This document shows positions 14,872 through 18,135 of a DNA stretch of 51,769 bases, piece after piece. This DNA comes from Bacteroidia bacterium (lineage in GTDB: Bacteria > Bacteroidota > Bacteroidia > NS11-12g > UBA955), in assembly GCA_044373665.1 (NCBI GenBank), contig JBIPNH010000006.1, positions 1 to 51,769 on the forward strand. The letters are read 5' to 3'. The stretch's first letter is position 1; each line of letters starts with the position of its first letter. The notes under the pieces were generated by a model. That model was not told the DNA's origin. It saw only the letters and a list, made by a program, of their open reading frames with translations, and did not search any database. A program made the translations under genes and the position numbers.

Positions 14872-15369
14872 TTGAAACTGATATTAGTACCGGCTATTTC
14901 GGACACAGAACTGGATGAACTTGCCCAATTGGCGGCGCAAATATGGTCGGCTTACTATCCGCCTATCATTGGGGAAGCACAGGTAAAGTACATGCTACAA
15001 AAGTTTTATTCTGCGGCTGCATTGCTTGAGCAAGTAAAAGAAGGACAACGTTTTTATTTGGTTAAAAGTCAAACGGAAACCTTAGGTTTTGTGGCTTTAA
15101 GCAGTCAGGAAGATTGGAGTGTTTTTATCAATAAGTTTTACTTAAAAATAGGCGAACAAAACAAAGGGTATGGCGAGCAAGTGTTTGATTTGATTAAAGA
15201 AAAACATCCACACAGCAAACTAACATTAACCGTGAATCGACAAAATTACAAAGCCATTAATTTTTACTTTAAATTAGGGTTCAAAATTCAAACCGTAGCC
15301 GATTTCGATATTGGGAATGGCTATGTGATGAACGATTTTGTGATGGTTTATGAGCCATTGAATGAGTGA
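14872..15369 (+). CDS. GNAT family N-acetyltransferase
   Basis: KFYL...QNKGYG; LTVNRQNYKAINFYFKLGF; DIGNGYVMNDFVM. Confidence 0.88.
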   Translation: MKLILVPAISDTELDELAQLAAQIWSAYYPPIIGEAQVKYMLQKFYSAAALLEQVKEGQRFYLVKSQTETLGFVALSSQEDWSVFINKFYLKIGEQNKGYGEQVFDLIKEKHPHSKLTLTVNRQNYKAINFYFKLGFKIQTVADFDIGNGYVMNDFVMVYEPLNE

Positions 15370-15519
15370 TTCTTTGCTTAGTAGATAAAGAAGGAAAAAA
15401 ATGCTTCAATAGTTTGTGATTTTTACAAAAGAATTTTAGAAAAAAATAATTATTGTTATAGTATTAAAAATGAAATAGTTGATTAATAAAAAGACACTTA
15501 TTGTGTGTAATGCGTTGAT

Positions 15520-15557
15520 TTAGATCTAATTAAATTTGTTTAATAGGCGAAAAGATC
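15520..15557 (+). promoter_or_regulatory. Promoter of the methyltransferase gene: -7 box flanked by two GATC sites
   Basis: TAAATTTG at 15531-15538; palindrome TTAGATCTAA at 15520-15529; second GATC at 15554-15557. Confidence 0.55.
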
Positions 15558-15575
15558 AAATATTTGTTCATTAAA

Positions 15576-16055
15576 ATGAATGTAAATTTTGAAAAATCAA
15601 TAAATACAACTGTTGAATGGTTGACGCCTCCTGAATTGGTTAAAAGTTTAGGTGAATTTGATTTAGATCCATGCACTCCATTAAATCCTCCATTTGTTCA
15701 TGCTAAGGTCAATTTCAATATAAAAGATGATGGATTGTCAAAAGAATGGTTCGGAAGAATTTATATGAATCCTCCCTATGGAAAAGGCATGGAAAAATGG
15801 ATTGAAAGGTTAAAAATTCATGGCAATGGAATTGCGCTAATTTTTGCAAGAACAGAAACTAAATGTTTTTTTAATCATATTTGGGATGATGCAGATGCTG
15901 TATTGTTTGTTAAAGGGCGAATAAAGTTTTATAATTTAGAAGGTAAACAAATGGGAACACCGGGAGCGCCGAGTATATTTATTGCATACGGAAAAAACAA
16001 TGCATTGGCATTAGAAAAGTCAGGTATACCAGGAAGGTTTATAATGTTAAAATAA
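15576..16055 (+). CDS. Phage-type DNA N6-adenine methyltransferase (Dam-like, PF05869-type)
   Basis: Motifs EWLTPP, FDLDPC, DGL..EW.G, catalytic MNPPY, IALIFARTET and VLFVKGRIKF. The ATG at 15576 is preferred over the track's TTG at 15564. Confidence 0.85.
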   Translation: MNVNFEKSINTTVEWLTPPELVKSLGEFDLDPCTPLNPPFVHAKVNFNIKDDGLSKEWFGRIYMNPPYGKGMEKWIERLKIHGNGIALIFARTETKCFFNHIWDDADAVLFVKGRIKFYNLEGKQMGTPGAPSIFIAYGKNNALALEKSGIPGRFIMLK

Positions 16056-16250
16056 TTCATGCAGAATAAATTCTGCTACATTATATTCAGCATCAATAAT
16101 CCAAGTGTTTTCTTTCAAAAGTTTAATGATTGCTTCATTTTCATTTAGAACATTTTCAACAATACCAAGAACCTGAAGGTTTTCCACTTCATAATCTGAA
16201 TTTGGCGCAATTGTTTGTCCCTCTTTTGTTAGGATAATATATTTTTTCAT
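16047..16250 (-). CDS. Small acidic hypothetical protein (67 aa) coupled to the PLD-wH gene
   Basis: ATGA start/stop overlap with the upstream PLD gene (16247-16250); its 3' end overlaps the MTase 3' end by 9 bp. Confidence 0.7.
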   Translation of the reverse strand: MKKYIILTKEGQTIAPNSDYEVENLQVLGIVENVLNENEAIIKLLKENTWIIDAEYNVAEFILHELF

Positions 16251-17041
16251 TTATAAAGTTTTTTGTAAAGACCTTTTCCTTTAAATTCAATTAGACCTAT
16301 GTCTCTTAAATATTGTAACTGTTGTCTTATTTTATCTTTTATGTGGTTATTTTCAGGATAAATTTTTTGTAATGTTTTTTCAAAGCTATTAATTTCATTT
16401 AGAGAAAATGTTTGACTTGGAATAGATTCTAAGCATTTATATACCTCTAATTTCCAACCTTTTAAAGAAGAATAAATAATGTTTTGTGGTATTTCTAAAA
16501 TGTCATTTTCAATTTCATCCGTATTGTTAATCAAACTTGGGTTAGAAATAGGTTGCATGGGTTGCATTTGAGACAAAATATTACGAACCCAATCAATATC
16601 TGTTTGTTTTATTTTACCCGTATTTTCATCATTTGATAATTGGTTATAATCTTTAACAACATCAGAAACTATGGATTTGTCATCTGTGTAAAAACCGTAT
16701 TCAAAATTATTAAGAAGTCCACCATTTGTTAAATTACTTGATGTTATTATTGCTTTTTCATCATCAAATAAATAAATTTTAGAGTGAAGTGATGTGTGAT
16801 TTTTAACGATACCTTTATTGCTAATTATATTTTCTAAACCATTTAAATCGAGAGAGCCAGAATGAATGTTATTTAATTTAAAAGAGGTTATCAATTCAAA
16901 TTTGGTGTCTTTTTTCTTAATTTTTAATAACTCATTGCAAATATTTTCTTTGACAAATGGTGACGTAATTTTGATGGATTTTTTGGATTCAAAAACCAAG
17001 TCCATTAATTCCGTTTTCCAAGGTGTTTTTATAATTCTCAT
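16247..17041 (-). CDS. PLD-family nuclease fused to a DpnI-type winged-helix domain (putative m6A-dependent type IV restriction endonuclease)
   Basis: Single HKD motif LHSKIYLFD...ITSSNLT.GGL.NNFE, with N-terminal ITSPF. The C-terminus FSLNEINSFE..L...YPENNHIKDKIRQQLQYLRDIGLIEF.GKGLY matches the DpnI C-terminal (Dam-replacing HTH) consensus. Confidence 0.85.
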   Translation of the reverse strand: MRIIKTPWKTELMDLVFESKKSIKITSPFVKENICNELLKIKKKDTKFELITSFKLNNIHSGSLDLNGLENIISNKGIVKNHTSLHSKIYLFDDEKAIITSSNLTNGGLLNNFEYGFYTDDKSIVSDVVKDYNQLSNDENTGKIKQTDIDWVRNILSQMQPMQPISNPSLINNTDEIENDILEIPQNIIYSSLKGWKLEVYKCLESIPSQTFSLNEINSFEKTLQKIYPENNHIKDKIRQQLQYLRDIGLIEFKGKGLYKKLYK

Positions 17042-17214
17042 CTACCAGTTCAATTTTTGCTTCGATTCAAACATAAACATATTTCAAGCAATTTTCAAAT
17101 GAATTTTAATTTTGATTCTTCGTTATGTGTTTTCACGATTACAATATTTAGAGTCATTGAGCGTTATTCTATCAATGAAAATAAAGCTACATGAATCTTT
17201 AATTTTTAATAGTC

Positions 17215-18135
17215 ATGAATCACAAGCTTCTGTTTTTTGCAATTACCATGGTCGTTGTTCTCGTTACAACGGCTTTTGTTAACACCTCTTCCAACGAATA
17301 CACTCTAAAGGACGCCCTGCTAAAAAAGTTGGTTACGGTTCAAGTTTATAACAATACCAAGTCATCCCATTATGGGCAACCTATTCTGTTGCAAGTAGCA
17401 AATTTAAAAAATTATCCCATCAAACTAAAGGTTGAAAAAGGCAGTTTGTTTGAGCCTGATTTGCCACAATACCAAACCATTATTATTAGCAACGACCAAC
17501 AAATGCCATTGGCTGCCAATCAAGAAAAAAGCAGTTATTTGCTTTATGGTTTTTGTGTTGAATCACACGATGCAGCCCCAGGAAGTAAAAAAATAAGCTA
17601 CCAATTGGGCAAAAAAGCAGAACCTAAAGTGTGTTCAATGGTCGATTTTATCTCCAAAGAAAATTTGCAAGGTTCTTACGAAGGGCAAAATGCCGTTTGG
17701 GTTTTGGTCAATAATCAATCTTTGGACAATGTTATTGGTTTTGATACTTTAAGTACCAACAAGCTTCATAAGTTTATGTCGAAGTTAACTGGTAAACCAA
17801 TGCCGCCACCTCCTGCCAAAAACGATTACAAACGCAACTATCACGCCACCGAATACCGTCCCAAACTAACTGTAAGAGGACAGGTTAATTTGCAAGGTCC
17901 TCGCAGCAGTAAAGTTCAAATTGGTTTGTTTGATTCCGCTAATATTTGTGTCAGAGAATTGTATGTCAATAATGCGGTTCCCAAAGGCAAACAATCAGTT
18001 GGGTATAGCTTTGATGCTTCTGAATACCAAAACAGGTATTATTACATTAAAACCATGGTGGATGATGTCATTGTATTTCACAGTCGCTATGATTTTAAAA
18101 CAGGAAAAATTTGGCAAGTCGAAAGACGATTTTAA
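17215..18135 (+). CDS. Secreted hypothetical protein; thioester-domain-like motifs plus a FlgD/T9SS-like Ig C-terminus
   Basis: Signal peptide; GFCVESHDAAP and GQNAVW motifs; Pro-rich linker PMPPPP; C-terminal VQIGLFD...VRELY...YYYIK. Confidence 0.5.
   Translation: MNHKLLFFAITMVVVLVTTAFVNTSSNEYTLKDALLKKLVTVQVYNNTKSSHYGQPILLQVANLKNYPIKLKVEKGSLFEPDLPQYQTIIISNDQQMPLAANQEKSSYLLYGFCVESHDAAPGSKKISYQLGKKAEPKVCSMVDFISKENLQGSYEGQNAVWVLVNNQSLDNVIGFDTLSTNKLHKFMSKLTGKPMPPPPAKNDYKRNYHATEYRPKLTVRGQVNLQGPRSSKVQIGLFDSANICVRELYVNNAVPKGKQSVGYSFDASEYQNRYYYIKTMVDDVIVFHSRYDFKTGKIWQVERRF

Follow-up and report, generated by a model that had tools for sequence, protein, structure and literature searches.

The rule of restriction biology is that methylation marks self, or that methyl-dependent enzymes stand alone. 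In the pneumococcus, DpnI and DpnII are alternative cassettes at one locus. The Pgl system of Streptomyces coelicolor is described as one in which phage DNA is marked and then restricted, and in which a toxic methyltransferase (MTase) is held by an antitoxin. Fusions of a phospholipase D (PLD) type nuclease domain with a winged-helix (wH) domain, e.g. Aba4572I and CbaI, are described as N6-methyladenine-dependent type IV enzymes (PMC11037411). According to the accessible sections of that paper, wH fusions, PLD-wH included, are toxic in Dam+ E. coli and less so in Dam- cells; Aba4572I adjoins a predicted CGATCG MTase, where possible self-restriction is remarked on; and MTase neighbours are treated as rare cases among the 27 PLD-wH proteins found. 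Reported here is a three-gene islet in contig JBIPNH010000006.1 of a Bacteroidia bacterium (assembly GCA_044373665.1), the whole 51,769 nucleotides (nt) of which are termed the window. The islet carries a Dam-type adenine MTase gene, a small open reading frame (ORF) and a PLD-wH nuclease gene. We read it as a copy of a widespread cassette that moves horizontally, probably writes and reads GATC methylation, and is found at the sites of displaced Dam-type genes.

The initial annotation of the window described three tightly packed genes with overlapping ends between unrelated genes, one of them coding for an HKD nuclease with a DpnI-type wH domain. The ORFs and the domain matches bear out the layout at this position, and PLDc_2 and DpnI_C matches together with retained methyl-pocket residues bear out the nuclease assignment. 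The MTase gene (15576–16055, + strand) codes for 159 amino acids (aa) from an ATG equivalent to the conserved start in its relatives; the ORF listing begins at a TTG at position 15564 and gives 163 aa. The small ORF (16047–16250, − strand) codes for 67 aa and is the terminal gene of the nuclease operon. The PLD-wH nuclease gene (16247–17041, − strand) codes for 264 aa. The MTase and nuclease genes are 192 bp apart with the small ORF alone in between. The 3′ ends of the MTase gene and the small ORF share 9 nt (16047–16055), and the last 4 nt of the nuclease gene (16247–16250) are also the first of the small ORF. A scan of the window found no terminator-like site between the MTase gene and the small ORF. 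The upstream region of the nuclease-small ORF operon (17042–17214, − strand) is free of GATC.

The linkage of the three genes, which the initial annotation had raised as a question of co-occurrence, is seen widely. A scan with an MTase alignment, using one genome per species, gave 103 relatives and the best 80 (66–94% identity) were kept. This set is anchored on intact MTases and is thus biased towards intact copies. The 80 loci come from Flavobacterium, Runella, Arcicella, Chitinophagales and also Acidobacteriota (Pyrinomonadaceae), that is, from two phyla. By tblastn the small ORF lies convergently behind the MTase gene in 76 of the 80 loci, and a nuclease gene is found upstream of the small ORF in 71, which carry the trio. 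The nuclease is of the DpnI type (true DpnI orthologues) in 48 loci, PLD-wH in 12 and a third type, termed T3 here, in 11. Cultured carriers of the trio include Runella salmonicolor S5 (PLD-wH), Runella aurantiaca YX9 and Flavobacterium daejeonense DSM 17708 (both DpnI type) and Flavobacterium filum DSM 17961 (T3). In three loci a wH gene is cut by the contig end and six have no nuclease, two of these (L058, L084) ending at the contig edge just after the MTase gene. The 3′ ends of the MTase gene and the small ORF overlap by 4–9 nt in 37 of 73 loci and are 0–18 nt apart in 22 others.

A check sample of 400 genomes drawn evenly from the class gave a similar picture. DpnI_C is found in 13 of the 400. 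MTase matches of at least 299 bits are present in four genomes (G206, G215, G248, G429), and in all four the MTase, small ORF and wH genes are adjacent. Remoter MTase matches (171 bits or less) in the same sample have no small ORF or wH neighbours. The small ORF was found in seven of the 400 genomes, which are the four trios plus G386, G134 and G152. Ratios of nonsynonymous to synonymous substitution (dN/dS) in four close pairs are 0.06–0.17 for the MTase and 0.05–0.46 for the small ORF, which indicates that both genes are under purifying selection. The trio is a conserved cassette spread horizontally through many lake and soil bacteria.

The window nuclease matches PLDc_2 (53.9 bits), PLDc (23.3 bits) and also RE_NgoFVII. 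Its PLD (HKD) domain takes up residues 1–160 (16562–17041, − strand). The HKD motif is HSKIYLFD, starting at residue 86, and has the form H-x-K-x4-D; the H86 codon is at 16784–16786. The final 80 residues form the DpnI-type winged-helix reader domain (16250–16489, − strand) and the DpnI_C match is 100.1 bits. Residues 192–262 align to the wH domain of DpnI (4ESJ residues 187–257, E-value = 5.6e-18). The pocket residues of the DpnI wH domain are given as E228, K229, R231 and Q232 (PMC3424567). The window recognition helix, IKDKIRQ, keeps K229, R231 and Q232 and has D in place of E228. Among 58 module proteins the helix reads (IK/IT)DKIRQ in 50, and the K, R and Q are invariant in all 58. The window reader domain, as aligned, keeps the DpnI methyl-pocket residues.

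The DpnI-type proteins of the related loci are similarly conserved. One of them aligns to DpnI (4ESJ) over its full length with 350 bits. The motif R-x-G-W-x-G-C is present in 45 of 45 full-length proteins and corresponds to R135, W138 and G140 of DpnI, residues described as forming the methyl cleft of the catalytic domain. These reader residues argue for methyl dependence, and the window PLD-wH and the DpnI-type effectors would both read G6mATC.

The window nuclease has the same architecture as the described PLD-wH enzymes, a PLD domain with a C-terminal DpnI-type wH domain. It differs in being one of three interchangeable effectors that accompany a PF05869-type MTase and a small partner. The architecture is also more abundant than the accessible part of the published account indicates. 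There were 485 proteins matching PLD-wH at E-values of 1e-5 or better; among those listed, 120 of 120 carry PLDc_2 and DpnI_C, so there are at least 120 clusters of this architecture, in contrast to the 27 proteins of the paper. Stand-alone type IV and type IIM enzymes differ in a further respect, as the nuclease described here has an intact adenine MTase nearby, linked in 71 of the 80 loci.

The T3 nuclease (236–247 aa) replaces DpnI or PLD-wH in 11 of the 80 cassettes, e.g. L019:4691–5401 (− strand), L085:4672–5412 (− strand) and 9 further loci; another copy is at L096:2674–3417. It gave no match in a local Pfam scan, is precomputed as PF27126, and has 2891 relatives, all of which are named hypothetical. 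T3 weakly matches the PADLOC REase_II ('Type II restriction enzyme') model (E-values = 9e-6 and 3e-11). An AlphaFold2 model has a mean predicted local distance difference test (pLDDT) score of 61.7. Residues 1–70 are modelled well (pLDDT 82–93), with an H-E-H-H-E-E order of elements and a winged-helix-like topology; past residue 70 pLDDT is about 37–57 up to residue 190 and 50–70 after it. By eye, the motif IDVIWFN...FEVE looks like that of PD-(D/E)XK nucleases. T3 is probably an uncharacterised restriction effector.

The three nuclease types appear exchanged on a common core. On a tree of 77 MTases the nuclease type needs 28 changes, against a mean of 29.1 when labels are shuffled. Thus the nuclease type is not inherited with the MTase. 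Five sister pairs of loci show 80–96% nucleotide homology over the MTase gene, the small ORF and shared flanks, and the homology breaks off at the nuclease gene, to be found again on its upstream side. The pair that shows this best is L046 (PLD-wH) and L051 (DpnI type), both from Runella; the others are L019/L021, L031/L034, L040/L047 and the window with L013. Between the window and L013 the homology continues through the wH-coding part and the catalytic domain alone differs, PLD in the one and PD-(D/E)XK in the other. From the positions of these homology breaks, the nucleases are seen to have been swapped by recombination on a constant core of MTase and small ORF.

The window MTase matches the Pfam family PF05869 'Dam' (38.6 bits, cut-off 28.1), with the NPPY motif present, and also the PADLOC 'orphan methyltransferase' model. 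NPPY and DLDPC are invariant across 55 aligned MTase relatives. The Dam enzymes of T1 and HP1, which methylate GATC, are presumably members of the same PF05869-type family. M.Phi93DAM of Lactococcus phage phi93 is described as a 140 aa enzyme with NPPY as its sole recognisable motif, its G6mATC product having been established by single-molecule real-time (SMRT) sequencing and by DpnI and DpnII digests. It aligns with the window MTase over the full length with 30% identity (E-value = 1e-16, hhalign probability 99.2%). From this homology we infer that the window MTase methylates GATC. A search of PDB sequences with the MTase gave a chance match alone (E-value = 0.4). The Hia5/Hin1523 non-specific adenine MTases were considered as relatives and rejected; these are described as 281 aa enzymes akin to D12 Dam and belong to a different family.

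Full-length homologues of the MTase with 45–54% identity were found in 514 of 50,697 phage records searched, e.g. in Bacteroides phage B40-8. Phages of Bacteroides, Phocaeicola, Halomonas and Pseudomonas are among them. The window MTase thus shares with the phage PF05869 orphan MTases the small fold, the NPPY motif and homology over its full length. It differs from them in being chromosomal, paired with a small ORF and provided with its own GATC-bearing promoter. In the genome of the window there is no PF01555 match, and PF02086 is matched once (21.8 bits), by a 182 aa ORF beside a coaD-like gene. That ORF was considered as a second Dam and is read as RsmD-type, not Dam, by inspection only. 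On that reading, the cassette MTase is the sole candidate GATC methylase in the genome of the window.

Two GATC sites precede the MTase gene in the window. The first (15523–15526) is just upstream of a −33-like TTTG (15535–15538) and the second (15554–15557), 31 bp from the first, abuts a −7-like box, AAATATTTG (15558–15566). The Bacteroidota promoter consensus is TTTG / TAnnTTTG. Among 76 loci with enough upstream sequence for comparison, two GATC sites 29–35 bp apart are found before the MTase gene in 61, and these 61 sequences are all distinct. Conservation reaches 90% or more in the GATC columns, and the spacer is variable. In the conserved pair one GATC is again just upstream of the −33-like TTTG and the other abuts the T/A-rich −7-like TTTG box. 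The observed/expected ratio of GATC is 3.0 in the 120 nt upstream of the MTase gene (145 observed vs. 47.9 expected), 0.43 in the MTase gene, 0.14 in the small ORF and 0.07–0.10 in the nuclease genes. It is 0.17 in the 150 nt upstream of the nuclease gene, where any GATC at all is found in 3 of 69 loci. Over the whole genome of the window (2.66 Mb, 1674 GATC sites), no palindromic tetramer is avoided more strongly than GATC, with an observed/expected ratio of 0.28; GGCC comes second (0.47). That GATC is the cognate site of the cassette is thus supported indirectly, from the promoter pair and from the homology of the MTase to M.Phi93DAM.

An inverted repeat, ACACTTATTGTGTGT (15494–15508), is situated upstream of the MTase promoter. 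By eye it recurs upstream of the MTase gene in many related loci, including some with promoters that lack the GATC pair. The MTase promoter of L087 is one that lacks the pair. A sigma-70 promoter scan of positions 15200–17300 gave 16 sites vs. 13.4 expected; the sigma-70 model is uninformative for this phylum.

The small ORF yields no match in Pfam, NCBIfam or PADLOC. Its product is acidic, with a net charge of −7 in the window and a median of −9 in 68 relatives. The AlphaFold2 model has a mean pLDDT of 94 and a strand-strand-helix-helix-strand topology. A Foldseek search of PDB with this model gave a best E-value of 0.71 and no hit at 0.001 or better, and there is no recognisable DNA-binding fold. 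An Atlas feature match links the protein to clusters labelled AF_1447/PF27350 (score 0.97), and the local Pfam scan gave no match. The small ORF was also considered as DpnD/PcfM (PF14207) and this was rejected at the sequence level. It gives no Pfam match to that family at an E-value of 0.1 or better and an hhalign probability of 0.1% against the DpnD-like protein of genome G003, which itself scores 52.9 bits for PF14207.

The small protein, the MTase and the wH domain were co-folded as three chains. The complex of small protein and MTase has a score of 0.63, and the best of three controls, a run in which the MTase was replaced, has 0.13. Of 80 solved complexes, 58 pass the mark used for the complex score, as do 2 of 110 mismatched pairs; these counts are approximate here since own alignments and three chains were used. 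At least 38% of contacts recur between runs, and the partner has a pLDDT of 72 or more. Every listed contact of the small protein falls on the MTase (residues 95–99, 102–103, 107, 115–118, 134–136, 138 and 156–162), and the contact residues include the family-wide ARTET and FVKG motifs. On the small protein, the predicted interface takes in residues 55–61. The predicted partner of the small protein is thus the MTase and not the wH domain of the nuclease. The initial annotation had suggested, as one possibility, that it restrains the nuclease, and the model places it on the other enzyme.

The small ORF has one match, a weak one, in the 50,697 phage records, 514 of which carry MTase homologues. 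This near-absence from phages that have the MTase implies that the enzyme family needs no small protein for catalysis, which in turn favours a regulator over a catalytic subunit. The lone phage match (L095:2629–3192, + strand) is in the 462-kb record of an uncultured phage. There it forms the C-terminal portion of a 187 aa protein and no MTase is nearby. Thus the small-protein fold also occurs in another context, as a fusion.

In its predicted binding to a potentially harmful enzyme the small protein is like the partners of type II toxin-antitoxin systems and the C proteins of restriction-modification (R-M) systems. As for C proteins, there is a possible operator in the enzyme's own promoter, and the convergent genes allow antisense control. 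It differs from both in lacking a recognisable DNA-binding fold and in being encoded in the nuclease operon, not with the MTase.

The flanks of the cassette contain further MTase genes, most of them broken. Matches to D12 Dam are found by tblastn upstream of the nuclease gene in 20 of the 80 loci, and most span the first 25–105 residues only; an intact ORF is kept in three of the 20. In L020 the match is near full-length and the longest ORF there stops after 187 aa. On the far side of the cassette MTase, beta-class (PF01555) MTase matches are present in 44 of the 80 loci and most are partial. L023 lacks the first 55 residues and in L036 the gene is in pieces; L020 keeps a 309 aa ORF with DPPY. 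The cassette MTase is intact while most of the adjacent D12 and beta-class genes have decayed. The truncated Dam and beta-class MTase genes in the flanks show that the cassette is dam-replacing.

To our knowledge, an intact adenine MTase is not part of the DpnI or the Neisseria drg cassettes, and the cassette described here differs from both in this respect. Otherwise there are likenesses. The drg gene is described as replacing dam at the leuS/dam locus, and the window-type cassette likewise replaces Dam genes. The DpnI cassette of S. pneumoniae (dpnC/dpnD) shares its nuclease with the 48 related loci that carry DpnI orthologues, and in both cases a small gene follows the nuclease gene. The small ORF differs in not being DpnD/PcfM. 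As with DpnI and drg, alternative cassettes are found at one chromosomal site within the genus of the window too.

That site lies between a GNAT acetyltransferase gene (14872–15369) and a gene for a 306 aa protein without family match (17215–18135), and both flanking genes are unrelated to the trio. In the relative G001, whose GNAT is 94% identical, the same flanks are about 400 bp apart with a 60 aa ORF alone between them. Thus the islet is an insertion of about 1.85 kb (about 15370–17214). The 60 aa ORF of G001 (L140:1287–1469, + strand) resembles DpnD/PcfM, as in the G003 protein, by eye only. G018, a syntenic relative of the window genome, has a DpnI-type trio and an adjoining 73 aa N-terminal fragment of Dam. 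G003 carries DpnI and a DpnD-like gene at another location, without the MTase (L006). The GNAT/306 aa site seems to accept alternative DpnI-type cassettes.

The window stretch is present in lake-water metagenome runs of many studies. Contigs of two runs cover the entire trio, and contigs from three DNA runs carry the PLD-wH form, with no joints listed. A 168 nt contig from an RNA library covers 15999–16132, over the overlap of the MTase gene and the small ORF; it is strandless and DNA carry-over is possible.

Other ORFs are found in or beside the cassette in some loci. In 10 loci (L026, L033, L044, L048, L055, L057, L062, L066, L071, L082) a Y1-transposase-like ORF is situated within the MTase/small ORF junction. 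These ORFs were recognised by their likeness to L053:4590–5096, the sole copy scanned (PF01797), which is directly downstream of the MTase gene in a locus without the small ORF. It looks as though the junction is repeatedly targeted by Y1-type ORFs. The Cloacibacterium rupense locus contains a 1190 aa ORF (L016:1–3571, − strand) with an N-terminus that is Cas9-like by eye, and the Flavobacterium filum locus has an AAA_15 ATPase, identified by Pfam, beside the cassette (L034:1907–3736, − strand).

A tentative reading, one that we would put a little short of even, is that the trio works as an interlocked module for writing and reading, the MTase being held off by the small protein and, once released, marking DNA for the nuclease. 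The small protein, made together with the nuclease, would bind the MTase and keep it inactive for as long as the operon is expressed, and convergent transcription without a terminator would damp MTase expression further. Host GATC sites would then be left unmethylated, and the nuclease would behave like any other methylation-dependent restriction enzyme, cutting invading DNA that carries Dam methylation. The trigger, we infer, would be a collapse of operon output or a loss of the small protein, as in phage takeover or loss of the cassette. The freed MTase would methylate GATC in all DNA of the cell, including that of the phage. The remaining nuclease would cut the marked DNA, leading to abortive infection or addiction, or to a Pgl-like marking of phage progeny. 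The MTase promoter may sense GATC or be bound there, and any G6mATC-dependent nuclease could serve as the effector.

The likeness to Pgl would lie in the inverted logic, with marking by an MTase followed by restriction, if the cassette MTase does mark DNA. There is no homology to Pgl/BREX type 2. Three genes lie between the flanks and none matches PglW, PglX, PglY or PglZ. The window effector also differs in being a defined methyl-dependent nuclease. MANTIS was considered as an analogue and set aside, because hemimethylation is described as marking self there, which is the classical logic.

Several findings weigh against the interlocked write/read module. The complex of small protein and MTase is a model, and the small protein may inhibit, activate or merely tether the MTase. 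The nearest characterised enzyme checked is just 30% identical to the window MTase, and the score for the NCBIfam equivalog TIGR01712 (phage_N6A_met) is 26 bits, under the cut-off of 97.05. The GATC pair is lacking in 15 of the 76 MTase promoters. GATC depletion was tried as a signature of the cassette and set aside as suggestive at most. Trio genomes have observed/expected ratios of 0.23–0.70 and trio-less relatives 0.15–0.84 (27–60 kb each, from related genomes), thus the relatives without the trio are depleted as well and the depletion is not ascribable to the cassette. A profile comparison of T3 with the wH domain of DpnI detects no similarity (hhalign probability 0.1%).

The three genes are also not always together. 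In G386 the small ORF adjoins a degenerate wH gene; G134 has T3 and the small ORF; G152 has two divergent copies of the small ORF, one beside a T3-like gene; and all three genomes lack the MTase at these places. L090, with T3 and the MTase, is missing the small ORF, and L016, with the MTase and the small ORF, is missing a nuclease. An apparently intact D12 Dam gene is directly upstream of the nuclease gene in three loci from metagenome-assembled genomes (MAGs), namely L083:5431–6339 and L085:5429–6271, both with T3, and L087:1706–2662, with the DpnI type. These Dam genes overlap or abut the start of the nuclease gene, an arrangement that would be lethal under the proposed mechanism unless the nuclease is controlled. 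More generally, the carriage of a potentially lethal MTase-nuclease pair demands very tight control.

The viability of the pair and its stable inheritance in many lineages would also fit two enzymes that are compatible co-residents, the MTase not making the nuclease substrate on the chromosome. The MTase would recognise a motif other than GATC, or act on single-stranded DNA or on one strand, as pneumococcal DpnA does. Sites would be unmethylated or hemimethylated and largely ignored by DpnI-type enzymes, and hemimethylated sites are described as poorly cut by DpnI. The small protein would be a regulator or subunit of the MTase, and the MTase would have a separate role, e.g. protection against DpnII-type enzymes or epigenetic regulation. 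The 30% identity to the characterised GATC enzyme leaves room for this, and the cassette sits among remnants of DpnM-like and DpnA-like genes. It fails to explain that every partner, irrespective of nuclease fold, reads methylated GATC, that two promoter GATC sites are kept in a GATC-depleted setting, and that Dam and beta-class neighbours decay while the cassette MTase stays intact. We consider it unlikely, though it deserves to be taken seriously.

The position of the GATC pair, overlapping the MTase promoter elements, would also fit a bistable epigenetic switch, in which the locus toggles between a Dam-like and a DpnI-like state. In the Dam-like state the promoter GATCs would be methylated, the MTase on, and the nuclease-small ORF operon silenced by convergent transcription. 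In the DpnI-like state DNA would be unmethylated and the nuclease on, with the MTase switched off and restrained by the small protein. Cells of a single genotype would then fall into two phage-resistance phenotypes that exclude each other, as in the pneumococcal DpnI/DpnII polymorphism. The convergent, overlapping and terminator-less genes are consistent with a switch, as is a small protein made with the nuclease yet predicted to bind the MTase, and intact Dam is tolerated beside the nuclease in three loci. Leaving the nuclease state for the methylating one looks hazardous, however, and genome-wide depletion of GATC is not expected if GATC is often protected. As a separate explanation the switch appears rather improbable.

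The dam-replacing setting, with Dam and beta-class fragments in the flanks as described for Neisseria drg, would also suit a device for establishment or control; an incoming methyl-dependent nuclease would kill a Dam+ recipient unless it is delayed. The complex of MTase and small protein might mainly be a GATC-binding regulator, like the controller proteins of R-M systems, with methylation secondary. It would time or limit the nuclease on entry of the cassette into a Dam-methylated recipient whose dam gene is replaced, and the promoter GATC pair could be its operator. The invariant NPPY and DLDPC argue for retained catalysis, and the GATC pair is at the MTase promoter and not at the nuclease promoter, where GATC occurs in 3 of 69 loci. 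A control device of this type seems improbable.

A classical R-M system, with the MTase shielding host DNA against a nuclease specific for unmethylated sites, would suit the convergent layout, which is common among the MTase and nuclease genes of type II systems. T3 would suit it as well, in view of its weak match to the PADLOC 'Type II restriction enzyme' model and since the cassette MTase is the sole intact MTase nearby in 9 of 11 T3 loci. Against this explanation stand the 48 loci with DpnI orthologues, the methyl-cleft motif kept in 45 of 45 full-length copies, the wH methyl-pocket residues kept in PLD-wH and the near-identical MTases that pair with all three nuclease types, and it is very improbable. 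The alternative offered in the initial annotation, remnants brought together by chance in a defence hotspot, could appeal to the variation of the site within the genus (a 60 aa ORF only in G001, a DpnI-type trio in G018) and to the truncated MTase genes that flank many copies, and is refuted by the recurrence of the same trio in two phyla, by purifying selection and by ORFs that are intact in most loci, the site being occupied by a dam-replacing cassette with interchangeable nucleases.

On balance, a mark-and-cut immune module or an epigenetic Dam+/DpnI+ toggle, in which methylation would be a signal of death or marking and not a label of self, is quite conceivable, and we hold it with some reserve. 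The parts are known already, i.e. DpnI-type and PLD-wH enzymes, phage Dam-type MTases and dam replacement. What appears to be new is the conserved trio, the small partner, the GATC pair in the promoter and the swapping of effectors. These were not found in the literature searched, and searches for the trio, AF_1447/PF27350 and PF27126 gave nothing relevant; the supplementary conflict tables of PMC11037411 may contain comparable cases.

With the trio, dozens of lineages in two phyla inherit side by side an enzyme that writes a mark and one that reads what is probably the same mark. Should the one indeed supply the other, the trio would be a simple three-gene case of inverted self/non-self logic, and would account for PLD-wH enzymes that are hard to express and for wH nucleases that adjoin MTases. 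A conservative reading still gives a new family of dam-replacing cassettes, a protein that is a candidate for inhibiting or regulating Dam-type methylases, an abundant new nuclease family (T3, PF27126) that is a likely restriction effector, and a clear example of effector-domain swapping on a constant core.

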